Shown: in pieces, positions 1,436 through 58,000 of the stretch
Layout of the letters: every line of letters starts with the position of its first letter
How positions within the stretch are numbered: position 1 is the first letter of the stretch
Origin: Malacoraja senta
Taxonomy: Eukaryota
Reading direction: 5' to 3'
Length of the DNA: 64,000 bases
Assembly (NCBI GenBank): GCA_038087875.1
Contig: CM075988.1
Coordinates: 4,712,001-4,776,000 of the forward strand
Translations under genes and position numbers: made by a program
Notes under the pieces: model-generated
The model's input: only the letters and a program-made list of their open reading frames with translations
Told to the model about the DNA's origin: nothing
Databases searched by the model: none

Positions 1436-1889
1436 ACAAATTTTAATTTCTCTCATAAATGTTAATAGTGTTTTAAATTATTTATAATTATTTTATATTA
1501 AATATATTTAGAATGAAACATCCTTAATTTGAATTTTTTTTCTCGTTTTCGGCTCGCCTACATGATACTTTAATAACCTTTTAATTTTTATTTTAACTAT
1601 TATTTTGTATTGAATTACACTATATTATTATTATTATTATTATTTTTAAACCTTCTCATACAGTAGACCCAACATTTTTAAGCAATGTGGACTAAGCATG
1701 ATATTCACCTCCAGAAAAAAAGTAGGAAGTATTGGCCGGGGGTCCAGGAGGTTGGCTAGGCCCTGGTGGGGTCCAGGGCAGCGCCCCCGGTGGGGGTTCA
1801 GAGGGCAACGTCCCCTGAAGCCCCTGCGTTTTCAATAAATTGAAAGTGATTCTCAAGCTTTCTGCTGGTAATTTACATAACAGAAGCTT

Positions 1890-2567
1890 AGAATTTTTCT
1901 AACACATAAGCAGTAAAATAACCCCCAAACGATATATATTTCATGAAATAGACAATAGACAATAGACAATAGGTGCAGGAGAATGCCATTCGGCCCTTCG
2001 AACCAGCACCGCCATTCACTGTGATCATGGCTGATCATCCACAATCAGTACCCCGTTCTTCCCTTCTCCCCATATCCCTTGACTCTGCTATCTTTAAGAG
2101 CTTTATCTATCTCTCTCTTGAAAGCCTCCAGAGAATTGGCCTCCACTGCCTTCTGAGGCAGAGAATTCCACAGATTCACAACTCTCTGTGTGAAAAAGTT
2201 TTTCCTCATCTCCGTTCTAAATAGCCTACCTCTTATTATTAGACATGTGGCCCCTGGTTTTGGACTCCCCCAACATCGAAAACATGTTTCCTGCCTCTAG
2301 CGTGTCCGAACCCTTAATAATCTTATATGTTTCAATAAATGGCCTCATACAGCTAAAAAAATCTTTACGTTACCTGAAATGTCTCGTTGCCTAGCACTGA
2401 GATGAGAAAAAACTTTTTCACCCAGAGTTGTGAATTTGTGGAATTCTCTGCCACAGAAGGCAGTGGTCTCGTCTCCTTCAGCAGTACCCCGGTCTCCCTT
2501 CCTGAGCTCAGACATCCACTTCTCCGCACCTCACCTACGCTCACGTCCCCTTACCCACACATCTACA
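1890..2567. repeat. 678-bp direct repeat, copy 1 (left flank of L1)
   Basis: Same sequence as 5835-6512 (offset 3945); identical ORFs at 1973 and 5918. Confidence 0.95.
1947..2336 (-). mobile_element. CR1 (HER1-type) LINE 3' end, also duplicated at ~5892-6281
   Basis: (ATAGACA)n tail and typical CR1 3' UTR/ORF2-end sequence on the minus strand. Confidence 0.85.
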
Positions 2568-5500
2568 AGAATGAACAAAGACAGTTAGAAGAACTTATTA
2601 GACAAATGGATATAGATAATGCTAAAGATCCAACAATAGATAAACATAATAAAATAATAATTTTAAAATTTAAATTAAATAAATTATTATCTGCCAAACT
2701 TATAAGACTTTTTCAAATTACAAAACAAGAGCACTTTGAATTTGGGGATAAACCGCATAAACTTTTGGCTCGCCAGTAAAAAAACGAGGAAAAGGAACAT
2801 ACTATACCAAAGATCAAATCAGATAAAGGGGAATTATTAACAACACCGAAGGATATTAATAAAAGATTTGCGCAATTTTACGAGAATTTGTATACATCTA
2901 AAACGATAATTGATTCCAATAATATCACAAAGTTCTTGGATACCTGTAATCTTCCAAAGTTAGAGCTGAAGGAACAAGAGGAACTGGGTGCACAAATCTC
3001 AATTAAGGAATTAGAAGATACAATAAACTCACTAAAAAATGGAAAAACACCAGGCCCTGATGGATTTACTAATGAATTTTATAAAAACTTTTATGAAAAA
3101 ATAATACCAAGATTACAAAAAATGTACCAATACGCTTTTAAAAAACGAATACTACCTGATACATTAGCGGAATCAACGATTACATTAATACCTAAGAAAA
3201 ATAAGGATTTAGAAGATCCTGGCTCATATAGAGCTATAGCATTGTTAAACACAGATCAAAAAATATTAGCGAAAACATTAGCCAGAAGATTAAGTAAATA
3301 CATTAGTAAATTAATAAACCCAGATCAGACAGGGTTTATCCCTAAGAGATACTCTTCTAATAATATGAGACGTCTACTCAACATAATGCACTCACACAAA
3401 TCTGAAGATCAAGAATTATCAATTATTTCGCTGGATGCTGAAAAAGCATTTGATCAAGTAGAATGGAATTATATGGATAAAGTATTACAAAAATTTCAAC
3501 TGGGAGAGAATTTTATTTTATGGATTAAGTTACTATATAACAAACCTACAGCTAGAATACTTACTAATAACATATTATCCTCGAAATTTCAACTATCAAG
3601 GGGAAATAGACAAGGATGCTCATTATCACCACAGCTGTTTGCTCTCATTATTGAACCGCTAGCAGAAAAAATTAGAATACACCCTGATATTCATGGATAT
3701 AATACTAAAGACTCATATAATAAAATATCTTTATACGCGGATGATATATTATTGTATATCACAAAACCTCAAATCACTATACCAAATATATTAAATTTAA
3801 TTGAAGACTTCGGATCTTTTTCTGGATATAGAATAAATTGGAATAAAAGTGAAATTATGTCAATAAAACCGAAAGATTCAACACATCTTTTAAAATTCCC
3901 TTTTAAAATAGCTACAGAAAAATTTAAATATTTGGGAATCGAAATTACCAGAGCATATCAAGGTATGCTCAGGGCAAATTTTGACCCCCTACTTAATAAA
4001 CTGAATACATTAATTAAATTCTGGAAAACGCTTCCGATGTCTTTAATAGGCCGAATAAACGCAATAAAAATGATCTTTTTACCACAAATTTTATACCTAT
4101 TTCAATCAATTCCTATATACTTACCTAAGAAGTTTTTTAAAAAACTCGACTCAGATATCACTAATTTTATATGGGACTATAAATCACATAGAATACAAAA
4201 AACCCATCTGAATAAATCTAAAGTATTGGGGGGTCTAGCACTACCCAATTTTATGTATTATTATTGGTCAGTAAATATTAAAAACATGATTCAACTGATG
4301 GATAACTCCGCCCAGCAAGTAGACTGGATTGTAATGGAGAAAGAGGATTGCTCCTCTAGAAACATTGGAGCGATCCTCCTCTCTCCAATGAAATTGAATA
4401 ACATAAACTATAATAAGAACCCAATTATTCATAGTACAATCCGTATTTGGAAACAAATAAAACAAAATTTAAAATTAAGAAACTTATCACTTTTATTACC
4501 TATAGTCAATAACCCTTCGTTTAGTCCTTCTATTATAGATAAAGCTTATACACAATGGGATAGACTAGGAATTAAAACGCTTGGTGACTTGTATGAAACT
4601 GGAAAATTACTTTCATTTCAACAATTACAAATAAAATATAAACTCGGAAATAATCAATATTTTAAATACTTTCAAATATGCGACTATTTGAAAAAATATA
4701 TAAAAGATCATCATAATAACCCAGCAGATGTACTGGACGAGGCAATGCAGACAAAAGCGGAATCAGCAAACTTAATATCATATTTGTACAATATTATCTT
4801 AAATGTACAAATACCATCTACGGAGGGTATCAGAAGAGACTGGGAACAAGAGTTAGCCATTAAAATTTCAAAGGAAAGTTGGAATGAATACTTATTAAAA
4901 GTACATAAATGCTCGATTAATGTAAGACACACTTTAATACAATTTAAAATTTTACATAGATTATATTATTCGAAAACTAAAATTCATAAAATTTTCCCAA
5001 ACGTATCATCTATTTGTGATAAATGTCAATCCCAAGAAGCAACTATAGCGCACTCATTTGTCTTCTGTACAAAAATTCAAAAATTTTGGAATGAAATTTT
5101 TGAAATCTTTACAAAGTTATTTAAAACAAGACTGATACCCAAAGCAGAATGGATTATCTTCGGAATAACGGAAGATGATCCAGAACTAAATGTGTTTCAA
5201 AAGAAATTAATGGAGTATGGGTTAATAACTGGAAAAAAGCTAATTCTAAAATTTTGGAAGAAGGCTCCAATACCAACTATAAATATGTGGATTTCAAATA
5301 TGTTTGAAACACTACACCTTGAAGAGATAAGACTCCTCCTAGCAGGTAAACCAGATCACTTCCACCTGACGTGGTCTGCATTTATAGAATTATTACAAAC
5401 ATAGGGTGCAAAAGTACTTTAAAAAAATAAAAAATTGAGGTCGGGTAAGGGGGGATGATAGTTGAAGAGTTGGTATGTCCTATTTACGTGATGCTCAAAA

Positions 5501-5834
5501 AAAAAAAACATTTGTTTTTCTTTTTTTCTCTCTCTCTTTTCTTTTCTTAGGGCCTATTTCTTAACTCCTTTTTTTTTTTGTCTTTAATTTCGCTTTCATA
5601 GGGTCCTCGTCCTTTTTTTTTTTTTTGTTTGTTGTTACATTTTCTACACTTTTCTACACTTGCACTTTTTCCTTCACTTTCTTCTCTCTTTCAATCTTTT
5701 CTTTCTTTAGCGTAAAAAAAAAATAAAGGGAGTACATTAATTGTAAGAAGATATAAATGACGAGTATTAATGTATGTGGCTGTGATGTAATGTACTTCTA
5801 ATAAATAAAAATTAAAAAAAAAAAAAAAAAAAAA
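2568..5834 (+). mobile_element. L1-clade LINE, 5'-truncated, young
   Basis: ORF2 from the linker through RT and the C-terminal Cys knuckle, T-rich 3' UTR, AATAAA at ~5800, poly(A) at 5814-5835. Confidence 0.96.
2888..5404 (+). CDS. L1 ORF2p fragment (reverse transcriptase + CCHC domain; endonuclease missing)
   Basis: 838-aa ORF with [36 protein letters not shown] (3734-3745), KYLG and CDKC..H...C. The same frame extends back to 2568 with one stop at 2777-2779. Confidence 0.93.
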   Translation: MYTSKTIIDSNNITKFLDTCNLPKLELKEQEELGAQISIKELEDTINSLKNGKTPGPDGFTNEFYKNFYEKIIPRLQKMYQYAFKKRILPDTLAESTITLIPKKNKDLEDPGSYRAIALLNTDQKILAKTLARRLSKYISKLINPDQTGFIPKRYSSNNMRRLLNIMHSHKSEDQELSIISLDAEKAFDQVEWNYMDKVLQKFQLGENFILWIKLLYNKPTARILTNNILSSKFQLSRGNRQGCSLSPQLFALIIEPLAEKIRIHPDIHGYNTKDSYNKISLYADDILLYITKPQITIPNILNLIEDFGSFSGYRINWNKSEIMSIKPKDSTHLLKFPFKIATEKFKYLGIEITRAYQGMLRANFDPLLNKLNTLIKFWKTLPMSLIGRINAIKMIFLPQILYLFQSIPIYLPKKFFKKLDSDITNFIWDYKSHRIQKTHLNKSKVLGGLALPNFMYYYWSVNIKNMIQLMDNSAQQVDWIVMEKEDCSSRNIGAILLSPMKLNNINYNKNPIIHSTIRIWKQIKQNLKLRNLSLLLPIVNNPSFSPSIIDKAYTQWDRLGIKTLGDLYETGKLLSFQQLQIKYKLGNNQYFKYFQICDYLKKYIKDHHNNPADVLDEAMQTKAESANLISYLYNIILNVQIPSTEGIRRDWEQELAIKISKESWNEYLLKVHKCSINVRHTLIQFKILHRLYYSKTKIHKIFPNVSSICDKCQSQEATIAHSFVFCTKIQKFWNEIFEIFTKLFKTRLIPKAEWIIFGITEDDPELNVFQKKLMEYGLITGKKLILKFWKKAPIPTINMWISNMFETLHLEEIRLLLAGKPDHFHLTWSAFIELLQT

Positions 5835-6512
5835 AGAATTTTTCTAACACATAAGCAGTAAAATAACCCCCAAACGATATATATTTCATGAAATAGACAA
5901 TAGACAATAGACAATAGGTGCAGGAGAATGCCATTCGGCCCTTCGAACCAGCACCGCCATTCACTGTGATCATGGCTGATCATCCACAATCAGTACCCCG
6001 TTCTTCCCTTCTCCCCATATCCCTTGACTCTGCTATCTTTAAGAGCTTTATCTATCTCTCTCTTGAAAGCCTCCAGAGAATTGGCCTCCACTGCCTTCTG
6101 AGGCAGAGAATTCCACAGATTCACAACTCTCTGTGTGAAAAAGTTTTTCCTCATCTCCGTTCTAAATAGCCTACCTCTTATTATTAGACATGTGGCCCCT
6201 GGTTTTGGACTCCCCCAACATCGAAAACATGTTTCCTGCCTCTAGCGTGTCCGAACCCTTAATAATCTTATATGTTTCAATAAATGGCCTCATACAGCTA
6301 AAAAAATCTTTACGTTACCTGAAATGTCTCGTTGCCTAGCACTGAGATGAGAAAAAACTTTTTCACCCAGAGTTGTGAATTTGTGGAATTCTCTGCCACA
6401 GAAGGCAGTGGTCTCGTCTCCTTCAGCAGTACCCCGGTCTCCCTTCCTGAGCTCAGACATCCACTTCTCCGCACCTCACCTACGCTCACGTCCCCTTACC
6501 CACACATCTACA
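5835..6512. repeat. 678-bp direct repeat, copy 2 (right flank of L1)
   Basis: Starts directly after the L1 poly(A) and matches 1890-2567. Confidence 0.95.
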
Positions 6513-7212
6513 CCTCAACTAAAGCCCTTGTCTCGACGATACCTCACTACCAAACTTCTCCTCACACCTAAACCTCGCCTCGACTAAACTGTACCTCACT
6601 AAACGTCGCCCCTCAAATAAACCTCACACCTCACCTCACACCTTAACCCCACCTCAACTGAACTAAACTCAACCTCACGACTAAACTCCACCTCACACCT
6701 AATCCGCACCTCGACTAATCACCGCCTCTCTCCCGCTCCCACTATTTATAGCCCCCCCCGGCTGTTGGCGGTGCCTCATGTGAGCGTAATGGCTCCAACT
6801 GGGGGGCGGGGCCGAGAGTGGCACAGGCACATTGCCCGAGAGAGCCAGTGGGTGGGGAGGGGCGCACGCGCGCTGAGGTTGACGTTGAGCCCAAGCCCCG
6901 CCCACGGTGGCCGCAGCCCCTCCCCGTGAGAGCGGGAGAGAAACCTCGATTAGTCGAGGCGGGGCTTATGTGTGAGGTGGGTGGTTTAGTTGAGGCAAGG
7001 TCTAGTGAGTTGAGCTTTAAATGTGAGGTGAAGTTTAGTCGAAACGAGGGGTTTAGTCGAGGTGAAAAATCAGATTAATTTCTAGGAAAACAAAAAAATC
7101 GGAATTCCGAGTTAAATCGGAAGAATATCTGGACTAGTCGTTTCTGGGGCTCCTCCGGGATTAGGGGCCCTGAAGCTTAAGCTTCATTAGTTTCAGAGTG
7201 GATCCGCCCCTG
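6410..7212. mobile_element. Probable non-autonomous DNA-transposon interior with fold-back repeats
   Basis: CTCGACTAA/CCTCAC-type motifs at 6510-6720 are mirrored as TTAGTCGAG/GTGAGG at 6940-7065. CpG-rich centre; ends in GGATCCGCCCCTG. Confidence 0.4.
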
Positions 7213-15914: not shown

Positions 15915-17155
15915 TACAATGATCCATGGTTCTTTATTAAGGGAACTCAAGGTAAAGGAACCACTGGGAGGTAGCGACTACAACATGATACATTTTAATC
16001 TGCAATTTGAGAGGGAGAAGGTGAAATCAGAAGTGTCAGTGTTACAACTGGGCAAAGGGGACTATGGAGGCATGCGGGAAGAGCAGGCCATAGTTGACTG
16101 GAAGGGACCCTAGCAGGGATGATGGTGGAACAGCAATGGCAGGAATTTTTGGAATAATCCAGAAGATGCAGGATTTTTTATTTCAAAGAGGAAGAAAGAT
16201 TTTTAGGGTGAGAAAAGGCAAGCGTGGCTGACAAAGGAAGTCAAGGACAGTATAAACTAAAAGAGGAGTACAACAAAGCCAAAGATTAGTGGGAAACCAA
16301 AGGAATGGGAAGATTTTAAAGAACAACAGAAGGTAACTAAAAAGGCAATACGAGGAGAATAAATATAAAAGAGGATAGCAAGAGTTTCTTCAGTTTATAT
16401 AAAGAGTTAAGAAGAGGCAAGAAATGGATGTTGGAACGCTGGAGAATGATGCAGGAGAAGTGATAATGGGGAAAGAAAGGAAATGGCAGAGAGTTGAATA
16501 ACTTTTAGCATCAGTCTTCACAGTGGAAGGCCCCAACAACGTGCCTGAAATTCAAGAGAGTCAGGGGTGGAAGTTAGTGGAGTGGCTATTGCCAGGGAGA
16601 AGGTGCTTGGGAAGCTGAAAGGGCTGAAGGTGGATAAATCACCTGGACCCAGATGGACTGTACCCCAGTGTTTCTGAAAGGGTGGCGTTTGAGACTGTGG
16701 AGGCATTGACACTGATATTTCAGGAATCACTAGAGTCAGGAGTGGTCCCAGATGATTGGAAAATTGCTAATATTACCCCGCTGCACAAAAAGCGAGCAAG
16801 GAAGAATAGTGGGAACTATGGGCCAGTTATTTTGACTTTGGTGGTTGGTAAAATGTTAGTCCATTATAAGGATGAGGTTACGGAGTACTTAGAAGTTTAT
16901 GATAAAGTAGGCCAAAGTCAGCATAACTTTGTGAAGTGAGGTCTTGACTGATAAATTTGCTGGAATTTATTGAAGAAGTAAATTGCAGGACAGACAAAGG
17001 TGAGTCAGTAGATGTTGTATACCTAGACTTTCGAAGCTTTGGATAAGGTGTCACACATAGGGCTGCTAAGGAAGATGAGAGCCTACGGTATCAAAGGGTA
17101 GATATTGCTGGATATCAGGTTGGCTGGGTGGCAGAAAACAAAGAGTGGCAATAAA
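15915..17155 (+). mobile_element. Degenerate CR1 LINE ORF2 (EN end to RT start), interrupted by L1 and resuming at ~19508-19950
   Basis: EPLGGSDYNMI, KSPGPDG, VPDDWKIANITPL, SQHNFVK and VDVVYLDF motifs, with stops and frameshifts. Confidence 0.88.
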
Positions 17156-17160
17156 GTAGA

Positions 17161-19504
17161 ATGGAATTATATGGACAAAGTATTACAAAATTTCAACTGG
17201 GGGAGAATTTTATTCTATGGATCAAGTTACTATATAACAAACCTACAGCTAGAATACTAACTAATAACATATTATCCTCAAAATTCCCAACTATCAAGGG
17301 GAAATAGACAAGGATGCTCATTATCACCACAGCTGTTTGCTCTCATTATTGAACCGCTAGCAGAAAAAATTAGAATACACCCCTGATATCCATGGATATA
17401 ATACTAAAGATTCCATATATAAAATATCTTTATACGCGGATGATATATTACTGTACATTACAAAACCTCAAATCACTATACCAAAATATATTAAATTTAA
17501 TTGAAGATTTTGGATCTTTTTCTGGATATAGAATAAATTGGAATAAAAGTGAAATTATGTCAATAAAACCGAAAGATTCAACACATCTTTTTAAAATTCC
17601 CTTTTAAAATAGCTACAGAAAAAATTTAAATATTTGGAATCGAAAATTACCAGATCATATCAAGGTATGTTTAGGGCAAATTTTGACCCCTTACTTAATA
17701 AATTAATACACTAATTAAAATTCTGGAAAACGCTCCCGATTTCTTAAATAGGCCGAATAAACGCAATAAAAATGATCTTTTTACCACAAATTTTATACCT
17801 ATTTCAATCAATTCCTATATACTTACCAAAGAAGTTTTTTAAAACTCGACTCAGATATCACTAATTTTATATGGACTATAAATCACATAGAATACAAAAA
17901 TCTCATCTGAATAAACCTAAAGTATTAGGGGGTTTAGCACTACCTAATTTTATGTATTATTATTGGTCAGTAAATATTAAAAGTATGATTCAACTGATGG
18001 ATAACTCCACCCAGCAAGCGGACTGGATAATGGAGAAAGAGGATTGCTCCTCTAGAAACATTGGAGCGATCCTCCTCTCTCCAATGAAATTGAATAACAT
18101 AAATTATAATAAGAACCCAATTATTCATAGTACAATCTGAATTTGGAAACAAATAAAACAAAATTTAAAATTAAGAAATTTATCACTTTTATTACCTATA
18201 GTCAATAACCCTTCGTTTAATCCTTCTATTATAGATAAAGCTTATACACAATGGGATAGATTAGGAATTAAAACGCTTGGTGACTTGTATGAAACTGGAA
18301 AATTACTTTCATTTCAACAATTACAAATAAAATATAAACTCGGAAATAATCAATATTTTAAATATTTTCAAATATGCGACTATTTGAAAAAATATACAAA
18401 AGATCATCATAATAACCCAGCAGATGTACTGGATGAGGCAATGCAGATAAAAGCGGAATCAGCAAACTTAATATCATATTTGTATAATATTATCTTAAAT
18501 GCACAAATACCATCTACAGAGGGTATCAGAAGAGACTGGGAACAAGAGTTAGCTATTAAAATTTCAAAGGAAAGTTGGAATGAATACTTATTAAACGTGC
18601 ATAAATGCTCGATTAATGTAAGACACACTTTAATACAATTTAAAATTTTACATAGATTATATTATTCGAAAACTAAAATTCATAAAATTTTCCCAAATGT
18701 ATTATCTATTTGTGATAAATGTCAATCCCAAGAAGCTACCATAACGCACTCATTCGTTTCTTGTACAAAAATTCAAAAATTTTGGAATGAAATTTTTGAA
18801 ATCTTTACAAAGTTATTTAAAACAAGACTGATACCCAAAGCAGAATGGATTATCTTCGGTATAACGGAAGATGGTCCAGAACTAAATGTGTTTCAAAAGA
18901 AACTAATGGACTATGGGTTAATAACTGGAAAAAAGCTAATTCTAAAATTTTGGAAGAAGGCTCCAATACCAACTATAAATATGTGGATTTCAAATATGTT
19001 TGAAACATTACACCTAGAAGAGATAAGACTCCTCCTAGCAGGTAAACCAGATCACTTCCACCTGACGTGGTCTGCAATTTATAGAATTATTACAAACATA
19101 GGGTGCAAAAGTACTTTAAAAAAAAAAAATTGAGGTCAGGTAAGGGGGGGATGATAGTTGAAGAGTTGGTATGTCCTATTTACGTGATGCTCATAAAAAT
19201 ATTTGTTTCTCTCTTTTTCCTCTTTCTCTCTTTCTTTCTTTCCTAGGGTCTATTTCTTAACTCTTTTTCTTTTGTTTTTAATTTTGCTCTTATAGGGTCT
19301 TCGTCCTTTTTTGTTGTCACATTTCCTACACTTTCACTTTTTCCTTCACTTTCTTCTTTCTTTCAATCTTTTCCTTTTCTAGTGTAAAAAATAAATGGAG
19401 TACATTAATTGTAAGAAGATATAAATGACAAGTACTAATGTATGTGGTTGTAATGTAATGTACTTCTAATAAAATACAAATTAAAAAAAAAAAAAAAAAA
19501 AAAA
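17161..19504 (+). mobile_element. L1 LINE copy 2, 5'-truncated, same subfamily as 2568-5834
   Basis: Colinear with ~3463-5835; ORFs 17871 and 18285 are near-identical to ORF2 segments; poly(A) tail; 8-bp TSD AAAGTAGA (17153-17160 / 19505-19512). Confidence 0.95.
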
Positions 19505-20054
19505 AAAGTAGAGGGGCAGGTAGTGTAGATAAATCACTGGTTCTCCAGAAGGACTTGAACAGGTTGGGAGACTGGGCAGAGAAGTAGCAGATGGAATATA
19601 GTGCAGCAAATTGTGGAGTCATGCATTTTGGTAATAGGAATAAAGGCAATAAATCAATAAAAGGCAATAAAGCCAATGGTAATAGGAATAATAAGAATAA
19701 ATCACTTTTGGGGAGAGAATCCAGAAATTAGAAGGTGTAAAGGGAATTGGGAGTGCTGGGGCAGGATTCCCAAAAAGTTAATCTGCAAGTCGAATTGGTG
19801 GTAAAGAAAACAAACTCAATGCTTGCATTTATTTCAAGAGGGCTTGTATACAAAAACAGGGATGGAATGTTGAGGCTCTGTAAGGCCACATTTGGAATAT
19901 TGAGAGCAAATTTGGCACCATATCTGAGGAAGTATGTGCTGGCTCTGGTGTCAGCGGGACAGGCCGCATCCCTGGATAGAAGGAATGGGAGAGAAAGCAA
20001 ACTCAATGCTAGCATTTATTTCAAGAGGGCTTGTATACAAAAAACAGGAATGTA

Positions 20055-32085: not shown

Positions 32086-32322
32086 TGTCGCGGCACCTGC
32101 TGGTGCTCGCAGGTAGTCGAACCCTGCGGTCGGGTTCCTCGGGCATGTGACACTGGGAGGGGTTGCGTTTTCGTGCGCTTTCAGGGCGATGCCCTTTCAG
32201 TCGCTCTAGACCACCGTTGTGGCTGGATCTGTTTTGTAGGTTGTGTGGGACCCATCGTTAGTTTAATCGTTTTTCAAATAAAACTTAATTTTAACCATCG
32301 ACTCTTGTCTCCATCCGCCAAA
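32086..32322 (+). repeat. Gypsy 5' LTR
   Basis: TGT start; about 14 differences from the 3' LTR by eye; contains AATAAA. Confidence 0.93.
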
Positions 32323-32323
32323 T

Positions 32324-32337
32324 TGGTGACCCCGACG
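32324..32337 (+). promoter_or_regulatory. Primer-binding site complementary to the tRNA-Trp 3' end
   Basis: TGGTGACCCCGACG directly after the 5' LTR matches the known tRNA-Trp PBS, TGGTGACCCCGACGTGAT. Confidence 0.85.
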
Positions 32338-35300
32338 CGTCCATCCGAAGTTGGACGAAGAGATGCAGGACGATTATCTTCCTGCCAGCGCTTCCAGCGT
32401 CCATCAGAATGCTGTCAGCCTGAGACTTCCCGAGTTTTGGCCCGATTAATCTCCGGTGCGGTTCGCCCACGTCGAGGCGCAGTTTCATCTGCACCACATC
32501 GTTGCAGATGAGACGAGATACTTCCACGTGGTGGGAGCTCTGCCGCAGGAGTCTGCCTCCCATCTACTGCCTTACCTTCGGGATCCACCGGCAGCTGCCA
32601 AGTATAAGGGCCTCAATGCTCTCCTGCTGCACACCTTCGGACTCAGCCGACGGGACCGTGCCGCCCGCATCCTGCACATGGACAGCTTGGAAGATCGGCA
32701 GCCGTCCGTCCTGATGGCCAGGATGCTCACGCTCATGGACGGCCATGTTCAAGCAGGCGTTGCTTGAACAGATGCCCGATGATATCTGTCTGATGCTCGG
32801 ATTTCCAAGATCCCCAGCAGCTTGCGGAGCGGGCTGATGAGCTCTGGATGACCAGGCATCAGGATGTCTGTGCCATTGACCGCGTGCCCGCATCAGCACG
32901 CCTTTCACCTCAGCGGCTCCGCGAGGAAGGCATGCCCTCAGCCTCCACTGAAGAGCCGCAGCAGCAGCCTGAGACTCGCGGTAAGCACTGTTGGTGCTAC
33001 TACCACCTCCGTTTTGGTGCGGAGGCTCGCCGCTGCCGCCAGCCCTGCACGTTTCAGGGAAATGCCTCAGCCGATCGTCTGTAGAGGCAATCACGATCGG
33101 CCAGAACGAACGTCTCTACATCCGCGACCGCCATTCCGGCCGCCGTTTCCTGGTGGACTCCGGCACGATCATCAGCATTCTCCCCCCGACCGGTCGTGAT
33201 ACCCATGCTGGTAAGTAGGGCCCTGTCCTCTCGGCCGTTAACGGGAGCGACATATGAACGTACGGTACGCGGACCTTTACCCTCACCCTCGACTCCCGCT
33301 CGTACATATGGAAATTTATCATTGCCCAGACGCTCTTGGGAGCCGATTTCCTGCGCGCGTTCTCCTTCGTCGTCAACTTGCGGGGCGGTCGCATGGTTCC
33401 TCGGTCGGACATCAGCCCCGCTGCACCGCGCAGCCCGCCCCGGCCTGTCCCGCAGCTTGACGCTGTTGCCGAAGTCGAAGGCCCGTTCACCGCCTTGCTC
33501 TCCGATTACCCCGAGCTCCTTATGCCCCGTTTCAGCGGGGCGGCTCCCCGACACGGGGTCGTGCACCACTTCTCCACCGAGGGCCCCCCGGTGCATGCTC
33601 GGGCGCACCACCTCCCGCCGGACAAGCTGCGCATCGCCCGGGATGAATTCCAACTGATGGAGGACATGGGCATTGTCCGACGGTCTGACAGCCTGTGGGC
33701 CTCCCCGCTACATATGGTCCCAAAAGCATCTGTGGGGTGGAGACCGGTGATTACAGGCGCCTGAACGCGGTAACCACAGCGGACTGTTATATCCTGGATT
33801 TCTCCGCGCACCTCGAGGGCGCCGCTTTCTTCCTGTTGGTGCACCCGCGCGTGTCCGCCCCCACAGAGCTCACCATCGACGCCTCGGATGCTGCTGTTGG
33901 TGCAGTTCTGGAGCAGTTCATTGACAACCGCTGGCAGTCGCAAGCGTTTTTCAGTTGGCAGCTGCGTGCTCCAGCGTGCAAATACAGCGCTTTCGACCGA
34001 GAGCTCCTTGCGTTCTACCTAGCCATCAGGCATTTCAGATATTTCCTCGAGGGCCGCGCTTTCACCGCATTCACGGACCACAAGGCCCTTACGTTCGCCC
34101 TCAGTAAAATTGCGGATCCGTGGTCCGCCAGGCAGCAGAGGCACCTTGCCTACATCTCGGAATTCACGACAGATATCCGCCACATAGCTGGGAAGCTTAA
34201 CGTCGTTTCAGCTCTCGACCAGGGCGTCGACTATGGTGAGCTGGCAGCAGCGCAGCAGGCTGATGCCAGTATGGCAGACTATCGCACCGCCAGCTCTGGC
34301 CTCCGGCTAGCTGAAGTGCCTTGCGGCACAGCCGGTACCGTGGTCCTGTGCGATATCTCCTCAGGACGTACCCTCCCAGTCATCCCCGCCAGTTGGAGAT
34401 GGCGGGTTTTCGACGCGGTCCATGGTTTAGCCCACCCGTCCATACGTGCGACGTCTGCCCTGTTGGCTGCCAAGTTCGTCTGGCATGGACTCCGTAAGCA
34501 GGTAGCTGCCTGGGCCTGTGCCTGCATCCCGTGCCAGACCTCCAACATCCAGCGACACGTGCAGCCTCCGGTGCAGGATTTTGCCGTCTCCGAGGGCGGG
34601 TTCCTGCACGTGCATGTGGATCTCGTTGGTCCCTTACCACATTCCTGAGGCATCACGCACCTGCTCACCATCGTGGACCGTTTCATGAGGTGGCAGGAGG
34701 CGATTCCACTTTCTAATACCTCCGCTGAGGCTTGCATGCGGGCTATGTCGCCCCACTGGATCGCCCGGTTCAGGGTGCCCTCCGACACCACCACGGACCG
34801 TGGTGCCCAGTTCACCTCTTACTTGTGGTCGGCCCAGGCACAGCTCTACGGCGCCCGGTTACACCATACGACCGCCTATCACCCGGAGGCTAACGGGCTG
34901 GTCGAAAGGTTCCATTGGCACCTTAAGTCGGCGCTGAAGGCCCGGCTGACGGGTCCGGACTGGGTGGACCAGCTGCCTTGAGTCCTCCTGGGTATCCGTT
35001 CCGCGCCTAAGGAGGATTTGGCTGCTTCCTCGGCTGAGCTCCGTAAGCAGACAGGAAGATTTGGCCTCGGCGTTGCAGGCCGGCCATCGTGAACGGGTGC
35101 GCACTTTGGCTCCCGTCCCCAATTCCAGCATGGGTCACCCGCGGTGTTACAACAGTGTGCTTATGTTTTCATCCGCAGGGAGGCTCACTGCTCGCCACTG
35201 CAGCGGGTCTATGAGGGGCCTTTTCGAGTGCTGCGGGTCGGAGTTATCACGTTCACATTGGACGTGGGTGGCCGGGAGGAGTTCGCCTCCATCGGCCGTT

Positions 35301-35584
35301 TCAAGCCCGCCCACTTGGATGGGGACAGACCGGTGGTCGTTGCTCCACCGCGATGTAGGGGTCGTCCGCCGGCCATTCCGCCCGTTCTGAGCACACCTGT
35401 TCCTGGCTTTGTTCCGCCGGCCCCCATTGTTATGACCGTCCCAATTCCGTGGCCCTCACGTCCTCCTGGCCCTGTTTTGCCGGCCCCTACCTGTTACGCC
35501 CACCCCGCTTTCGAGAACCATGCGTTCCGGACATGTCATCCAGGTCCCTCCTCGGGTCCGTACCTCGGGTTCTGGGGGGTGCCA

Positions 35585-35822
35585 TGTAGCAGCTCCTACT
35601 GGCGCTCGCAGGTAGTCGAACCCTGTGGTCGGGTTCCTCGGGCATGTGACACTGCGGAGGGGTTGCGTTTTCGCGCGCTTTCAGGGCGATGCCCTTTCAG
35701 TCGCTCTAGACCACCGTTGTGGCTGGATCTGTTTTGTAGGTTGTGTGAGACCCATCGTTAGTTTGATCGTTTTACGAATAAAATTTAATTTAAACCATCG
35801 ACTCTTGTCTCCATCCGCCAAA
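35585..35822 (+). repeat. Gypsy 3' LTR
   Basis: Direct repeat of 32086-32322, preceded by a G-tract. Confidence 0.93.
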
Positions 35823-36479
35823 CTGCGTTAATATTCTCACAAAAGCTATGTGAAAACTTTACAGTAGATGGATTTATTATGGATATAATAATCACCGTGT
35901 GGATGGATGGAAAGGGCCTGTCTCCACGTTGTGTCTCCAAAGTAAAATAAAGACACAAAGTGCTGGAGTAATTCAGCAGGTCTGGCAGCATCTCTAGAGA
36001 AAATGTATAGGTGATGTTTCAGGTCGGGACCCTTCTTCAGACTCAAACAGTAAATAGTAAACAGAAAACAGGCACCTTTATTGCCAGTTGCAATCAAAAG
36101 GTGGGAATGTATCTTCCATTTGAAACATAATGATGATACTTCTTCATTGTGATTGCTTTTGCAAGTAGCTTGGTTCATTACTTTGGAGGTTGTTGAAAGT
36201 GTTATAACGCCAGCATGTTATAACGCCAGCTTTGGTTCGATGATTGGACTCTAGCCTCTGAGATGGAAGGTGTTGTATATAATTCGCAAACTTGAATAAA
36301 TGATGTAAGGCAACATTTCGTTGTGAAAGATCATTTACCAACATTCAGTAATGAGGAAGGGAGTTATGCAAAGTGTCCCCGGCAGTACTTATCCCGCAGA
36401 TACCATCAATAAAAGAGATTATCTGGTCATTATAAAGCCCAGTTTATCTTCCTTTGTGGAAAGTCTACTTTTTCTTCCT

Positions 36480-37479: not shown

Positions 37480-37927
37480 ACGATGGGAGCTGCGAGCTTC
37501 CATCGTCGGGAGCTCGCAGGTCACAGGTGGGTGACCTGTTTTTCTGGGGCTCCCGCAACTACAGCTGCGTCCGCTGGACTGGAGGGCGGCAGCTTCGGCC
37601 ACCCCGGGCCTCGGAGTTTGAACCGGCCCGTTCGCAGACGGAGCACGGATTCAGCCGCGGGACTGACTTACCATCACCCGGCGGGGCCACAACATCAGAA
37701 GCCTGGATCGCCTCAGCGCAGAGGGAGAACAAAGAGGGAAGAGACAGAGACTTTAAGACTTTTGCCTCCATCACAGTGAGGAGATGCCTGGTGAACTCAC
37801 TGTGGTGGATGTTAATTTATGTTTATTGTGTGTTTTGTTATTTATTATATGTATGACTGCAGGCAACGAAATTTCTTTCAGACCGAAAGGTCTGAATGAC
37901 AATAAAGGAATCTAAGTCTAAGTCTAA
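37480..37927 (+). mobile_element. 5'-truncated copy of a non-coding retroposon (same family as 62045-62879)
   Basis: Near-identical to the reverse complement of ~62060-62480; (TCTAAG)n tail. Confidence 0.85.
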
Positions 37928-40107: not shown

Positions 40108-40922
40108 AACATGGGAAGGCAAATAAATGTTGTCGTTGCCACCGCCTGTGAAAAAAAGTAAAAATAGAGAGAACAATTTAAACTTTTTGGGGAGAGGGTG
40201 AGGGGTAGGGGAGAGGGGGGCGAGGGGGAGTGTGGGTAGAGAGAGGGGGGAAGGGGGAGAGGAGGGGGAGGGGTGCAGAGGAATGTGGAAGGAGGGAGAG
40301 AGGAGGGGGAAGGAGGGTGGAGAGGAGGGGAGTGAGGGGGGTGGAGGGGGAGAGGAGGGGGAGGGGGGGGAGGGGGGGAGGGGGTGAGAGAGAGGGAGAG
40401 GGCGGACGAACTCAGCGAGCGGGTGGCGCGGACGGGGCCGACTGCGAATGGGCGGCAGGCCTCGGCAGCTCTCGAGACCTCGCGGCACCTCTGAAGCCCT
40501 CGGAAGCACAACCAAATTACTGCGTGTTTAGCGGGGGTTAAGTAATCCAAAGCCCTGGGGGTGGAGGGCGGGGCGCTGCGGACGGCCGGCCGAGTGCGAA
40601 TTATGCGGGAGGGGGTTGCGTAACTTGCAGCTCGTTGAAAACAGTGCCCAGCAGGCTGCGCATTGAAAACTGCGCAGCTCGCCGCGAGGTGCAGAGGCAT
40701 TGTGACGTCATCCAACTTGGTGAACAATTTTAGTAAAAAACTCGGGAAATAATGAATCAAAAATAATGAATCAGATTTTCGAGATCATGAGGTAAATCTC
40801 TACCAGAATATGTAAAATTTTCACCATTAGCTCGTCGGGTTTTTGAGGAGATGTGAATCACAGACAAGCAAGACACACACAAATAAATACATCCACATCC
40901 AAGATCAGAATTTTATATTATA
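40108..40922 (+). mobile_element. Helentron/DINE-1-like non-autonomous element A (tentative)
   Basis: G/A-rich microsatellite core, GGCATTGTGACGTCA, TAAATCTCTACC, ACAC repeats, TTTTATATTATA end. Confidence 0.5.
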
Positions 40923-42092
40923 ACTAGACCAAGTGCAGACCCGTTGGGTCTGTTCCTCCAAAGCACGGTTGCGGGGTGGGAATCTGGCACCCACAAACAC
41001 ACACACTCAACACACCCCTTGATATTATCTTAATTTTATTAATTGGCTTCTTTTATCCCATCTCCAACCTACCCACTGACGAATAGCCCTCACCTCTCAG
41101 GTGCATCTAGGGGGGGGGCAGAGAGAGTGTGCACAGAGTGCAAGAGAGAGAGAGAGAGAGAGGACAAAGAAAAAGATAAAGATCAAAGAGAGAGAGAGCA
41201 GAGATAGGGGTAGGGGGTAGAGGGAAGGGGATGGGGGAGGGAAGGGGGTGGGGGGAGGGGGGTGGGGGAGAGATGGAAGGGGTGGGGGAGGGAATGGGGG
41301 AGAGGGAAGGGGGGGTGGGGGAGAGAGGGATGGGGTGGGAGGAGGAGGGAGAGGAGAGGGAGAGGGGGAGGAGAGGGAGATAGAGAGGGGGAGGAGAGAG
41401 GGATAGGGAGGGGGAGAGAGGGATGCGAAGGGGGAGAGAGGTGTGGGGGAGGGGGGAGGGATGGGGGAGGGAGGGGAGGAGGGAGATGGGGTAGGGGAGG
41501 GAGGGGGAAGAGTGTGGAGAGAGGGGGAGAGGGGTGGGGGAGAGAGGGTAAATAGTGGGGAGGGAGAGTGGAAGGGGGAGGGGTAGGGACAGTCCATCTG
41601 TTCCCCATTCCCTATCACCCCCAATCCTCTTTCTCTATTCCCACACACGTGATGACGCCCTTCGACACAGGCTGCGGGGGTGGGGAGGAGGGGCTGGGGC
41701 TGGGGCTGCTGCAAAGGCATATGTAAATGGATCCATTCCGATTGGACATCTGTGAGCATTGGGCATTGTGACATCACACGATGGAACGTTCACCAACATT
41801 CTATTGGTGAGAGCTGTTTTTTTTAAACATTTTGAAATTTTGTGGGGGGGGGAGAAGGATTTTATTAAAAATGTGTACATAAACACGACGAAATTTAATC
41901 AGGAGTGGATACTTGGAATGAAAAGTTAAATCTCTACCGAAATGGAAAAAATCTTGGCGTTTCTGCGTGTGGTGTTGGCGTAGCAACGAATCAAAGGAAG
42001 GCTGGCACCCACAAGACAGGCAGAAACACACACACGCACACAGAAACACACACACACACACACACACAGTTTTAAATATAGATAGATAGATA
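40923..42092 (+). mobile_element. Helentron/DINE-1-like non-autonomous element B (tentative)
   Basis: ACTAG start with GACCC-GTT-GGGTC hairpin, purine tract, motifs shared with element A, (CA)n, TTTTAAATATAGAT end. Confidence 0.55.
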
Positions 42093-50830: not shown

Positions 50831-51633
50831 CAACATTCTGTGTCTTTCCTTGTTAAACCAGCATCTACTGTTCTTTGTATCCTCACTGTCAGATCCTCGC
50901 TTGGATCCAAATGTAGTCAACATGCATCAAGGACACTGAGCATAAACATTTTGCTTTATTCATCCGCCATTCCTTTAGATCCTGGCCACACGTGTCCTCT
51001 GACCTTTGTGACTCATAGTAACACGTGATACATTTAAATATATTATGTCAGTTACCATGACACACATAATCACTGCAGTTAGGCACAAATGGCTGGCGTG
51101 GACATGGTGGGTCGAAGGGCCTGTTTCTACATTGTGTTTGACTCACTGACTCTATGTATTAGCCAATTTCACCCAAACCTCTCCGCTCAAGTCTTCCAAT
51201 TAAACAGTGCTTGTCATTATCGATTAAGGATTTTGCCATGAGATATGGGAGCTTGTTTCTCAGAATGTTAATTTTGCTCATTTCAGTTCTACAAAGTGCA
51301 CAGAATGTGGTGACCAATAATGAAAATGTATGAAACATTCCATCATTTGAATAATTTATTTAGAAATTTTAATGTTTCATTGCATAAAAAGGATTTTCAA
51401 TATGGGGATGAAATGTGTGGAAAGTACATTAGTCACAAGGATTTTACAATGCATTGAGCTGATTCCTAACTGTCCCTTCGTCTCTGGTACTCACTTTCCT
51501 AAAACACCATGTCATAACTTTAGCAAATGAAAATCAAATCAAAGACTGCAATTGCTGGAAATCTGAAACAAAAACAAAATGCTGGAAGCACTCAGCAGAT
51601 CAGGCAGCATTTGTGGAGAGAGAAACATAGTTA

Positions 51634-52172
51634 AGGGCCTGTCCCACTTTCACGTGATAATTCACGAATTCTACAGAGTTTTCTCCTGATTCAAACTCGC
51701 AGAATGTTCGTAACGAGTCCGTAGGAGGCCGTAGGAGTTCGTAGATATATCGTAGCGGCTCGTTATGCTAGCCGTAGGTACTCGGGGCATCAGATAAGTC
51801 GGGACGTTTTTTCCAGCCCGATGAAAAATGTCCACGAGCAAAAAAATAGCCGGGATGAAAAAAATTGCAACTTTTTACTCGTAGTTAGTTCGTTGGCAGA
51901 CCGTAGTAGGCCGTGAGAGTACTCGTAGATATTCGTGGGCACTCGTAGATATTCGTGGGTACTCGTAGCTCGGCAGCTGGACAGAGAAAAAAAGGTGAGT
52001 GAAAAAAAAGGCTTAAGTCAACATCAGCACGTGACCTCTGTCACTCCAGTTCGTGAGCGTATTCGTGGAAGGTCGTAGGAGTTTGTGGATTACCAAAATC
52101 TAGATTTTGTTTTTTAGGTCCTTTAAACTCGTCAGAGGTTTTGGATTAAGTCGTGAAAGTGGGACAGGCCCC
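51634..52172. mobile_element. PIF/Harbinger-type MITE
   Basis: TIRs GGGCCTGTCCCACTTTCACG / CGTGAAAGTGGGACAGGCCC; TTA TSD (51631-51633, 52173-52175); TCGTAG-rich interior. Confidence 0.88.
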
Positions 52173-53409
52173 TTACTGTTACAGATTCTGACTCAGAAAC
52201 GGATTCTGACAACGGTTCTGGTTGTGCCAAAGAATCTTTATAATAATAATAATAATAATAATCATTTTATTTACTGGCGCCTTTCTAAAACCCAAGGACA
52301 CCTTACAATGCATAGAATCACAACAAAACAAAAAAAACACATAATCGGAATAAATTCAATAAAAAAACACCACAGTACACAAATCAAGGACAGAATTCAA
52401 TTTCAAAAGCACAAAAAGAAAATAAGAAACACAAGTTTATTCTTGCATCTCCTCTCTCTCCATCTCTCCCACACTCAGGTCTTGCCAGCTTCAAAGTTGT
52501 CTTGTTGAGTCTCAGTGTGTGAACTTGTTCTCACCTCGCCCACGGCTAACAATGGCCTGTCCCCTTTATCATCCTTACTTTGTTGCATATCTTTCATTGA
52601 TTTGTTCTACATCACCGTCTATATCTCTCATTTCCCTTTCCCCTGACTCTCAGTCTGAAGAAGGGTCTCAACCCTAAACTTCACCTATTCCTTTTCTCCA
52701 GAGAAGCTGTCTGATCCGTTGAGTTACTCCAGCTTTTTGTGCCCATCTTTGAAATATTACCTCTTTTGCTTTCCATAGATGTTGCCTGCTTCAGATCCCT
52801 ACAAACAGGTAGATACCTACATCAAGCCCTGAACAGAGGGTCAAAGATAGAACAAGGTGCTGGAGCAACTCATCGGGTCAGGCAGCATCTCTGGAGAAAA
52901 GGAATAGGTGACATTTCGGGTCAAGATATTTCTTCAGACTGAGAGTCAAGAGTGAGGGAAACTAGAGATATGAAGTTACGAAGAACAAATGAATGAAAGA
53001 TATGGAAATAACAAATCAAAGCCAATCAGATGACTCAACCTGACCCGACCCAAAACGCCTATTCCTTTTCTCCAGAGATACTGCCTGAACCACTGAGTTA
53101 CTCCAGCATTTAGTGTCTATCTTCGGTGTAAACCAGCATCTACAGTTCCTGCCTACACATGGATTGTCAAAGATCATTTTACAGTGACATCATCGATCAA
53201 CAATGGCACTGAGTAATAAAAGCCTGATAAATTAAAGTTAGGCATAGGTTAGTAGAGGGATATAACTCATACTTTAGGGTGGCACAGTAGCGCAGCAGTT
53301 GAGTTGCTGCCTTACAGCACCAAAGACTCAGGTTTGATTCTGACAAAGGGTGCTGCCTGTGTGGAGTTTGTACGTTCTCCCAGTGACCGCTACTGTGCTA
53401 CTGTTACTG

Positions 53410-53688
53410 CATAATGCTGTGGGTCTATAAGGCGCTGGCCAAGCCGCATTTGGAATATTGTGAGCAATTTTGGGCACTATATCTGAGGAAGGATGTGCTG
53501 GCTCTGGAGAGGGTCCAGAGGAGGTTTACAAGAATGATCCCAGGAATGAGTAGATTAACCCATGATGAGCATTTGTCGGCACTGGGCCTGTACTCGCTGG
53601 AGTTTAGAACGATGAGGGGAGACCTCATTGAAACATGGAGAACAGTGAAAGGCTTCGAGAGAGTGGATGTGGAGAGGATGTTTCCAGC
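53410..53688 (+). mobile_element. CR1 fragment between V-SINE pieces (duplicate at 56998-57276)
   Basis: YKALAKPHLEYCEQFW..RRFTRMIPGM..GDLIET. Confidence 0.85.
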
Positions 53689-54020
53689 TGCCTTACACTG
53701 CTTACAATGCCAGAGACCAAGGCCACGGGTGTTTGTCTGTACGGAGTTTGTACGTTCTCCCCGTGACCTGAGTGTGTTTTCTCTGAGATCTTCGGTTTCC
53801 TCCCATGCGCCAAAGACGTGAAGGTTTGTAGGTTAATTGGCTTGGTATCATTGTAAAAAATTGTCACCAGTGTAGGTGCGGGGATCCCTGGTCGGTGCGG
53901 ACTCGGTGGGCCGAAGGGCCTGCTTTAAACTAAACTAACTATTGGGGTCAGATACAATATTTTTGGGTTTTAGATTTAGTTTTAGAGATACAGAGCAGAA
54001 ACAGGCCTTTTGGCCACTGA

Positions 54021-55073
54021 AGCCCCTGTCCCACTTTCATGACCTAATTGGTAACCTCTGCCGAGTTTACCCTTGACCCATACTGGCAGCATGGTCACCA
54101 CAAGGTCGTAGGAGGTCTTCGTAACTCTTCCTCATGCTTGTGAGTGGTCTCCGCATACTCGTGGCCTCAAGTAGGTCGCGGCGTATTTTCCAGCCTGATA
54201 AAAAATGTCCATGAGTAAATAAAAGGTCGGAATTCAGATTCAGATTCAGATTCAGAAAACTTTATTGTCTGTCGTAACAGAAAATCTTCTATGGCGTGGC
54301 TCAACATACAAACAGGACAATGTACTGATAAGCAGTCATACAACACAGATTTCTGCGAGCACACACCGTGTGTATAGATCTTAAAAGCAAGTATAAGGAT
54401 TAAAAACTGTAAAAATAGACAAGATGAAAGTTATGGATACGTGTAAAGTGACAGTGCGTCAGGGTTAATTTGTCCATTGTTCATTTTTTATTTAAGCTGT
54501 TTATGGCAATGGGTATGAATGAGTTTTTGTGGATGTTTTTCTTAGATAGGGGGACTTTATATCGGCGGCCTGATGGCAGAAGTTGGAAGGACTTGTGCAG
54601 GGGGTGGGTGGGATCCTGTGTAATGAGGTTGGCTTTCCTTTTAACTGCCTGGGTGTGAAGTACTGATAATTGATTTTGAGTTTGAGATAATTGATTTTGA
54701 GGCATGGAAAAAATTGATACTTTTTACTCGTAGGTAGGTCATAGGTAGGTCGTAGTAGGGAATGATGGTAGTCGTGGGTAGGTCGTAAGTAGTCGTAGGT
54801 AGTCGTAGGTCAGTAACTGGCCCGAGAAAAAAAATGCAAACATGTGATCATTTTCCACTCGTAGCTAGTCGTAGTTGGTCTTAGGTGTGGAAGACTGAGG
54901 TCGAGGGGGGTCGTAGGGGGTCATAGACATAGTTGTAGGAGGTCGTAGACATAGTCGTAGGATGTCGTAAGAGGTCCTTTACTTTGGCGAGTCAACACGA
55001 CCTTGACATTTTTTTCAACTCGTCTAGGGTCTTCTAAACTCGTGGATTAGGTCGTCCAAGTGGGACAGGCCCA
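54021..55073. mobile_element. Harbinger MITE inserted in a V-SINE and containing a Rex-type LINE end (duplicate at 57609-58661)
   Basis: TIRs CCTGTCCCACTT/AAGTGGGACAGG; TGA TSD; nested minus-strand DPTHPLHKSFQLLPSGRRY..SFIP with (TCTGAA)n tail at ~54229-54700. Confidence 0.85.
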
Positions 55074-58000
55074 TGAGTCCACTCCGACCAATGTTCCTGG
55101 AGAAAACCCATGCAGGTCATGGGTACAAACTCAGTCCAGACAGCACCCGTAGTCAGGATCGAATCCCTGTCTCTGGCGCTGTAAGGCAGCAACTCTACCG
55201 CTGCGCCACCGTGCCACCCCTAATGTTTTTTTCTTGTAGACACCACATATGTAAAAACAAATAGCTGCAATTTAAATCCATTGGTGTGACATCCCTTTGA
55301 ATGCCAGCCTGAAATTCAGACAACAGGGCCAGATATATCGTAGCGGCTCGTTATGCTAGCCGTAGGTACTCGGGGCATCAGATAAGTCGGGACGTTTTTT
55401 CCAGCCCGATGAAAAATGTCCACGAGCAAAAAAATAGCCGGGATGAAAAAAATTGCAACTTTTTACTCGTAGTTAGTTCGTTGGCAGACCGTAGTAGGCC
55501 GTGAGAGTACTCGTAGATATTCGTGGGCACTCGTAGATATTCGTGGGTACTCGTAGCTCGGCAGCTGGACAGAGAAAAAAAGGTGAGTGAAAAAAAAGGC
55601 TTAAGTCAACATCAGCACGTGACCTCTGTCACTCCAGTTCGTGAGCGTATTCGTGGAAGGTCGTAGGAGTTTGTGGATTACCAAAATCTAGATTTTGTTT
55701 TTTAGGTCCTTTAAACTCGTCAGAGGTTTTGGATTAAGTCGTGAAAGTGGGACAGGCCCCTTACTGTTACAGATTCTGACTCAGAAACGGATTCTGACAA
55801 CGGTTCTGGTTGTGCCAAAGAATCTTTATAATAATAATAATAATAATAATCATTTTATTTACTGGCGCCTTTCTAAAACCCAAGGACACCTTACAATGCA
55901 TAGAATCACAACAAAACAAAAAAAACACATAATCGGAATAAATTCAATAAAAAAACACCACAGTACACAAATCAAGGACAGAATTCAATTTCAAAAGCAC
56001 AAAAAGAAAATAAGAAACACAAGTTTATTCTTGCATCTCCTCTCTCTCCATCTCTCCCACACTCAGGTCTTGCCAGCTTCAAAGTTGTCTTGTTGAGTCT
56101 CAGTGTGTGAACTTGTTCTCACCTCGCCCACGGCTAACAATGGCCTGTCCCCTTTATCATCCTTACTTTGTTGCATATCTTTCATTGATTTGTTCTACAT
56201 CACCGTCTATATCTCTCATTTCCCTTTCCCCTGACTCTCAGTCTGAAGAAGGGTCTCAACCCTAAACTTCACCTATTCCTTTTCTCCAGAGAAGCTGTCT
56301 GATCCGTTGAGTTACTCCAGCTTTTTGTGCCCATCTTTGAAATATTACCTCTTTTGCTTTCCATAGATGTTGCCTGCTTCAGATCCCTACAAACAGGTAG
56401 ATACCTACATCAAGCCCTGAACAGAGGGTCAAAGATAGAACAAGGTGCTGGAGCAACTCATCGGGTCAGGCAGCATCTCTGGAGAAAAGGAATAGGTGAC
56501 ATTTCGGGTCAAGATATTTCTTCAGACTGAGAGTCAAGAGTGAGGGAAACTAGAGATATGAAGTTACGAAGAACAAATGAATGAAAGATATGGAAATAAC
56601 AAATCAAAGCCAATCAGATGACTCAACCTGACCCGACCCAAAACGCCTATTCCTTTTCTCCAGAGATACTGCCTGAACCACTGAGTTACTCCAGCATTTA
56701 GTGTCTATCTTCGGTGTAAACCAGCATCTACAGTTCCTGCCTACACATGGATTGTCAAAGATCATTTTACAGTGACATCATCGATCAACAATGGCACTGA
56801 GTAATAAAAGCCTGATAAATTAAAGTTAGGCATAGGTTAGTAGAGGGATATAACTCATACTTTAGGGTGGCACAGTAGCGCAGCAGTTGAGTTGCTGCCT
56901 TACAGCACCAAAGACTCAGGTTTGATTCTGACAAAGGGTGCTGCCTGTGTGGAGTTTGTACGTTCTCCCAGTGACCGCTACTGTGCTACTGTTACTGCAT
57001 AATGCTGTGGGTCTATAAGGCGCTGGCCAAGCCGCATTTGGAATATTGTGAGCAATTTTGGGCACTATATCTGAGGAAGGATGTGCTGGCTCTGGAGAGG
57101 GTCCAGAGGAGGTTTACAAGAATGATCCCAGGAATGAGTAGATTAACCCATGATGAGCATTTGTCGGCACTGGGCCTGTACTCGCTGGAGTTTAGAACGA
57201 TGAGGGGAGACCTCATTGAAACATGGAGAACAGTGAAAGGCTTCGAGAGAGTGGATGTGGAGAGGATGTTTCCAGCTGCCTTACACTGCTTACAATGCCA
57301 GAGACCAAGGCCACGGGTGTTTGTCTGTACGGAGTTTGTACGTTCTCCCCGTGACCTGAGTGTGTTTTCTCTGAGATCTTCGGTTTCCTCCCATGCGCCA
57401 AAGACGTGAAGGTTTGTAGGTTAATTGGCTTGGTATCATTGTAAAAAATTGTCACCAGTGTAGGTGCGGGGATCCCTGGTCGGTGCGGACTCGGTGGGCC
57501 GAAGGGCCTGCTTTAAACTAAACTAACTATTGGGGTCAGATACAATATTTTTGGGTTTTAGATTTAGTTTTAGAGATACAGAGCAGAAACAGGCCTTTTG
57601 GCCACTGAAGCCCCTGTCCCACTTTCATGACCTAATTGGTAACCTCTGCCGAGTTTACCCTTGACCCATACTGGCAGCATGGTCACCACAAGGTCGTAGG
57701 AGGTCTTCGTAACTCTTCCTCATGCTTGTGAGTGGTCTCCGCATACTCGTGGCCTCAAGTAGGTCGCGGCGTATTTTCCAGCCTGATAAAAAATGTCCAT
57801 GAGTAAATAAAAGGTCGGAATTCAGATTCAGATTCAGATTCAGAAAACTTTATTGTCTGTCGTAACAGAAAATCTTCTATGGCGTGGCTCAACATACAAA
57901 CAGGACAATGTACTGATAAGCAGTCATACAACACAGATTTCTGCGAGCACACACCGTGTGTATAGATCTTAAAAGCAAGTATAAGGATTAAAAACTGTAA

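Follow-up and report, generated by a model that had tools for sequence, protein, structure and literature searches.

A 678-bp direct repeat around a 5'-truncated L1 in Malacoraja senta: a candidate large target-site duplication

In a stretch of 64,000 nucleotides of the Malacoraja senta genome (assembly GCA_038087875.1, contig CM075988.1, positions 4,712,001 to 4,776,000 of the forward strand; hereafter the window, with position 1 as its first letter), a 5'-truncated L1 retrotransposon, here called L1a, is adjoined at both ends by a direct repeat that far exceeds 100 bp, measuring 678 bp and starting at an L1-endonuclease-type site beside the poly(A) tail. On balance, we lean toward the view that a single L1 insertion produced this repeat as a large target-site duplication (TSD). 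All tested sequence hallmarks of a large L1 TSD are present, and such an insertion is the best single explanation of the locus, but it is not established. As represented in the assembly, the sequence feature is real, and the locus would be a member of a known rare class, large L1 TSDs having been described in cultured cells and tumours.

An exact-match scan of the whole window, which contains no N, found positions 1890-2567 and 5835-6512 to be identical at 678 of 678 bases, with zero extension of the match at either end; from the zero differences, the divergence between the copies is below 0.44% (95% bound). The repeat ranks second in length among the exact repeats of the window, and because the next ones measure at most 103 nt and are L1-L1 or long terminal repeat (LTR) matches, it is not a chance match. 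What was duplicated is itself old repeat DNA. It includes a 3' fragment of a long interspersed nuclear element (LINE), which we take to be CR1-like, with 81-90% identity to three other copies in the window and very high depth in the contigs of the sequencing runs described below; at 10-19% divergence from its relatives, this fragment is far older than the 678-bp duplication. An inverted pair of LINE fragments (2143-2219 and 2392-2466, 77 bp, 90%) also lies within the duplicated segment and recurs in copy 2 (6088-6411). Since the duplicated 678 bp hold no open reading frame (ORF) of at least 150 aa and gave no match in Rfam, a functional effect is not expected.

The 3267 bases that separate the two copies have the make-up of an L1-clade LINE, with an ORF2 encoding a reverse transcriptase (RT), a 3' untranslated region (UTR) followed by poly(A), and a 5' truncation. 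The ORF2 remnant matches the RT profile PF00078 (E = 8e-40) and, weakly, zf-RVT, and is 53% identical over 940 aa to a 1266-aa ORF2 protein with endonuclease (EN) and RT domains. The best protein relatives are full-length EN+RT ORF2 proteins, with 49-56% identity at best, the named ones being from teleost fishes. The frame 2567-5404 reaches the junction with copy 1, and an ORF of 874 aa (2780-5404) is open after a single in-frame stop at 2777-2779; paralogous contigs have other letters in place of this stop, which is thus either private to L1a or a consensus error. At the 3' end, the run of A extends over 5814-5835 (22 A), its last base doubling as the first base of copy 2.

The left part of the locus, positions 1440-3000, was compared with contigs of four sequencing runs chosen among 22 (best word share, 0.68). 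At several flank sites, runs X15 and X16 disagree with the window at near full depth; run X1 reaches 19 and run X17 21 of the 30 bins, with the flanks scarcely covered in either. None of the four thus represents the source animal; counts of contig pieces given here are among the 32 pieces listed, 179,703 further pieces existing. The boundary 1889/1890 is bridged by six of these 32 (pieces 13 and 14 of X15, and 20-23 of X16), which are ~90% alike, and the left boundary therefore lies inside an older multi-copy element that was cut by the poly(A) join. On the right, an inverted-arm match of 6500-6587 to 7028-6950 spans 6512/6513. Judged from the sequence, both outer joins, left flank to repeat and repeat to right flank, are native, and given native joins on both sides, the continuity of paralogs and fold-back suggests that the pre-insertion site consisted of flank, one copy and flank; the runs compared yielded no orthologous empty allele. 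Piece 24 of X16 agrees with a native right join, as it fits 2443-2560 and its next 76 letters do not fit the window. As for the L1 start, both of the long L1 contigs listed, which come from different runs (piece 8 of X1 and piece 29 of X17), begin to fit at 2567 and bear 134 and 161 unaligned letters 5' of it, presumably upstream L1 sequence. The element thus starts at 2567 or 2568, with a 1-bp overlap with copy 1 and without filler. A first-pass annotation of this DNA had placed the truncation at 2568, which holds to within 1 bp, and was right in describing the two copies as identical, copy 2 as beginning at the end of the poly(A), and the left boundary as GCTT/AGAATT, close to the preference of the L1 endonuclease. 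TT/AGAA is one purine change away from the TT/AAAA-type consensus (PMC2912911), and 0.15% of window positions carry the motif TTA[AG][AG]A.

Under a single-insertion origin, the TT/AGAA site and the poly(A) tail would mark the first nick and the priming step, with ORF2p nicking the bottom strand at this site and priming reverse transcription on the poly(A). A second cut usually follows at a short distance, 8-17 bp in the case of the two neighbouring L1s; here it would fail to resolve the intermediate. The upstream end would then gain 678 nt, either by break-induced synthesis on the intact strand or because the top strand was nicked far away and displaced. The tract would end at the foot of a fold-back, at 6511/6512, and be end-joined to the truncated cDNA. 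We favour break-induced synthesis for two reasons: a polymerase stall at the hairpin foot would account for where the duplication ends, and a cDNA end that docked and was trimmed at the nick would account for a five-base match at the L1 start.

The fold-back is an imperfect one of 554 nt, and its foot is predicted to lie 0-1 nt from the end of the duplication. When 6440-7100 was folded as single-stranded DNA, the z-score against 20 shuffles was -6.85, and the outermost stem began at 6511:7064 in all six folds (three windows, both strands), with a pair probability of 0.71-0.93. With 21 local fold-back clusters in the 64 kb, the chance of a foot falling within 2 nt of the duplication end is, post hoc, ~0.2%, and within 12 nt ~0.8%. 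The ends of a second perfect duplication in the window, of 3.6 kb (Table 1), have no listed fold-back foot, the nearest cluster starting at 51629, 114 nt from 51743. The choice of the second-strand cut has been argued to be structural in the available sections of PMC12809410, a view that is compatible with a nick at the predicted hairpin foot, yet is not evidence for such a nick. By a rule from the same source, EN cuts at a distance of 2 nt from a mismatch of the A-G, T-G or U-G type. The position 6512/6513 would agree with it, but the mismatch predicted here is A-A, and the rule was not counted. The fold-back has short sub-terminal repeats and a GC-rich core and is possibly a non-autonomous DNA transposon, with no second copy in the window.

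At the L1 start, the first five bases after copy 1 (AGAAT) equal the first five of the repeat, that is, of the target; matches of at least five bases to the target start occur at 10 of 2816 L1a positions. In the neighbouring L1b, an ordinary insertion of the same family, seven of the eight TSD bases are L1-encoded. Owing to the five-base match, the L1a locus can also be parsed as an ordinary insertion with a 5-bp TSD and an extra 678-bp copy in front. The notion that AGAAT is target rather than L1 sequence was rejected, since the paralogous L1 contigs fit from 2567; the protein alignment of L1 homologs has a K/R column at the first L1a codon, and these homologs are too distant to address microhomology at the DNA level. 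A more detailed scenario, which we regard as speculative and rather unlikely as it stands, makes the locus a germ-line fossil of large-TSD formation: the cDNA would dock at the nick by 5-bp microhomology, thereby fixing the truncation, the join would fail, break-induced synthesis would stall at the foot of the 554-nt fold-back, and its product would be ligated to the trimmed cDNA. The five-base match, the coincidence of the hairpin foot with the end of the duplication, and the second perfect duplication are new relative to the first-pass annotation.

Table 1. Features of the L1a locus and of the remainder of the window
Feature	Position	Strand	Basis or remark
L1-endonuclease-type first-nick site, GCTT/AGAATT (putative)	1886..1895 (boundary 1889/1890)	+	within older multi-copy repeat
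Copy 1 of the 678-bp repeat	1890..2567	+	exact match to 5835-6512
Old LINE 3' fragment, in copy 1	1947..2338	-	counterpart 5892-6283 in copy 2
L1 5' junction: A2567 overlap, then AGAAT	2567..2572	+	L1-derived; also equals target 1890-1894
L1a ORF2 remnant, RT and C-terminal part, EN domain lacking	2568..5404	+	profile search and protein comparison
L1a 3' UTR	5405..5813	+	common to second L1 at 17151-19507
L1a poly(A) tail, 21 A	5814..5834	+	directly adjoins copy 2
Copy 2 of the 678-bp repeat	5835..6512	+	exact match; runs on into native right flank
Imperfect fold-back, 554 nt	6511..7064	.	predicted outermost pair 6511:7064 at duplication end
Second L1 (L1b), same family as L1a	17151-19507	+	93.5% overall to L1a; 8-bp TSD 17153-17160/19505-19512
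Short, more distant L1	24884-25838	-	72% to L1a; 17-bp TSD 24867-24883/25839-25855 at CT/AAAA site
Degenerate Ty3/gypsy-like LTR retrotransposon	32086-35825		LTRs 32086-32325 and 35585-35825, 93.8%; RNase H and integrase zinc-binding domains
Perfect head-to-tail duplication	51743-55333 and 55331-58921		3591 bp exact, period 3588, 3-bp microhomology CAG, without inserted sequence

Several observations weigh against a single-insertion origin. An ordinary 5-bp TSD in the true allele would be expected to produce just such a five-base match, of the kind that L1b displays, and identity at 678 of 678 bases is compatible with a join of two haplotypes, the probability of zero differences being 0.26-0.71 at 0.2-0.05% heterozygosity. 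The 5' half of L1b carries 15 indels over 869 aligned bases (13 of them single-base, many in homopolymers) versus 3 over 1070 in the 3' half, and its indels likely represent unpolished long-read error. The second perfect duplication (3591 bp) lies 45 kb away in the same window. The junction of copy 1 with the L1, 2567/2568, is bridged by none of the 32 listed pieces; because the runs are from other animals, most pieces are unlisted and contigs drop rare variants, the missing bridge is no evidence against the junction, and a metagenome scan for the same junction, with zero matches, is uninformative.

Mis-assembly at a heterozygous, ordinary L1 insertion is the foremost alternative, one that we consider doubtful and nonetheless take seriously. 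The real allele would have the 5-bp TSD AGAAT, all of it microhomology as in an L1b-like insertion, and the assembly would have run 678 bp into the empty haplotype before jumping to the first base of the insertion. This accounts for the five-base match directly and needs no special mechanism, given how few L1a positions match by chance and that L1b displays the same pattern; the signs of a noisy-read consensus in L1b and the presence of another perfect duplication point the same way. According to the available text of PMC9516828, false duplications tend to arise at heterozygous boundaries, and at times their copies are linked by unsupported sequence with no N gap; the hairpin foot could have been the stopping point of reads or of a contig. 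However, most false duplications described in that source have the N gap that is lacking here, the join lacks the stretch of left flank that an overlap join usually brings along, and the copies are without any difference. The second duplication also fits such an error poorly, with its 3-bp microhomology (chance ~5%) and its zero differences over 3591 bp, for which P is at most 0.03 with two haplotypes at a heterozygosity of at least 0.1%, unless polishing homogenised them; it is either false or a genuine, young tandem duplication. The retrotransposition-driven segmental duplication proposed in the first-pass annotation retains its large-TSD hallmarks and falls short of being established, and mis-assembly has gained support. 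The label itself does not fit, as 678 bp amounts to a small tandem-type duplication and the usual cut-off for a segmental duplication is 1 kb.

Two successive biological steps would yield the same final structure, and we judge them improbable. After an ordinary L1 insertion, the empty and filled alleles could have undergone a non-homologous switch or unequal exchange, or two same-family L1s located 678 bp apart on homologs could have recombined by crossover into a chimeric L1. The window contains three L1s and another young duplication, which lends such routes some plausibility, but they call either for a further event that hits a single exact base or for a pair of insertions no more than 678 bp apart, and the substitutions between L1a and L1b are spread rather evenly over ORF2 (4-11 per 200 bp), with no switch, a comparison that has little power with its single comparator. 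A 678-bp tandem duplication that came first, into whose exact junction the L1 then inserted with a TSD of 5-6 bp (2567-2572/5834-5839), is very improbable: the 6-base match is present and an L1-free tandem duplication does occur in the window, but the six matching bases are L1-derived according to the paralogous contigs, the TT/AGAA site would be accidental because the junction would not contain it, and the insertion would have to strike one exact base.

Besides the L1s, for which the first-pass annotation had correctly given ordinary TSDs of 8 bp and ~17 bp at the other two copies, the window holds a degenerate LTR retrotransposon (Table 1) and a pair of dispersed inverted copies (37501-37927 and 62050-62479, 94% over 437 bp), probably of a young non-autonomous element. 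Long low-complexity G/A-rich tracts at 40189-40406 and 41206-41589 have G-quadruplex or triplex potential. By its repeats, the window looks like DNA of a cartilaginous fish.

If the large TSD were true, as verified by reads, it would supply useful endogenous evidence on germ-line occurrence, and its two footprints, the five-base match and the predicted hairpin foot, would yield testable predictions for the resolution of the second strand. If the germ-line fossil scenario were true and general, the length of L1-made duplications would be set by DNA secondary structure, and events of this kind would survive unnoticed in slow-evolving vertebrate genomes, since surveys of TSDs go no further than 25-30 bp. 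If the locus were instead an artefact, it would illustrate how heterozygous L1s can pass for giant TSDs.

Very long TSDs are rare, as the first-pass annotation stated, and they are a published class rather than a new phenomenon, long TSDs forming a named category in PMC4245944. The distant second-strand cleavage that it invoked is one published route, the other being synthesis from the reciprocal end. Genome-wide surveys, in their available sections, are limited to TSDs of 5-30 bp (PMC2912911, which asks for work on longer TSDs) or 5-25 bp (PMC12016303), so that the germ-line frequency of large TSDs is poorly measured. The literature searched yielded no endogenous large TSD in fish or the germ line, a result that does not imply absence, as subscription papers mostly lay outside the search; the available portions of PMC10249811 and PMC12350158 contain no large-TSD case.

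Among known systems, engineered human L1 in HeLa and nucleotide excision repair (NER)-deficient cells gives comparable products, namely poly(A)-tailed, 5'-truncated L1s with direct repeats of >100 bp that start from an endonuclease site (PMC5223499). Up to 10% of the L1 events recovered in HeLa have TSDs of >100 bp, a share that reaches 57-91% where NER is deficient (Servant et al. 2017, PMC5223499, citing Gilbert 2002/2005 and Symer 2002); the accessible text models them by a distant second nick with strand displacement and predicts that large TSDs are short-lived because their copies recombine. Those events were recovered de novo in cultured cells, whereas the present locus is endogenous to a non-mammalian vertebrate and known from the assembly alone. 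In a zebrafish LINE, ZfL2-2, one of 25 inserts in chicken DT40 cells has a TSD of 1228 bp (PMC2666801); this, too, is a fish LINE with a long TSD of similar size, obtained in repair-proficient cells, but it belongs to the L2 clade and is an assay insert rather than an endogenous copy. False heterotype and homotype assembly duplications (Ko et al. 2022, PMC9516828, as far as its text was available) resemble the locus in their identical neighbouring copies, a likely heterozygous site and signs of error in the assembly; the locus differs from them in having no gap and in the coherent retrotransposition marks at both junctions. The same architecture is found in L1 tandem duplications of 1-10 kb, "regarded as large TSDs" and modelled by break-induced replication with synthesis from the reciprocal end (bioRxiv 10.1101/2024.12.14.628481), and in a 22.6-Mb L1-bridged tandem duplication in a tumour (Rodriguez-Martin 2020, PMC7058536). 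These events are somatic or experimental and larger, and the available parts of both sources report no end-point hairpin or nick-site microhomology; their routes, reciprocal-end synthesis or sister-chromatid bridging, would fit the locus described here.

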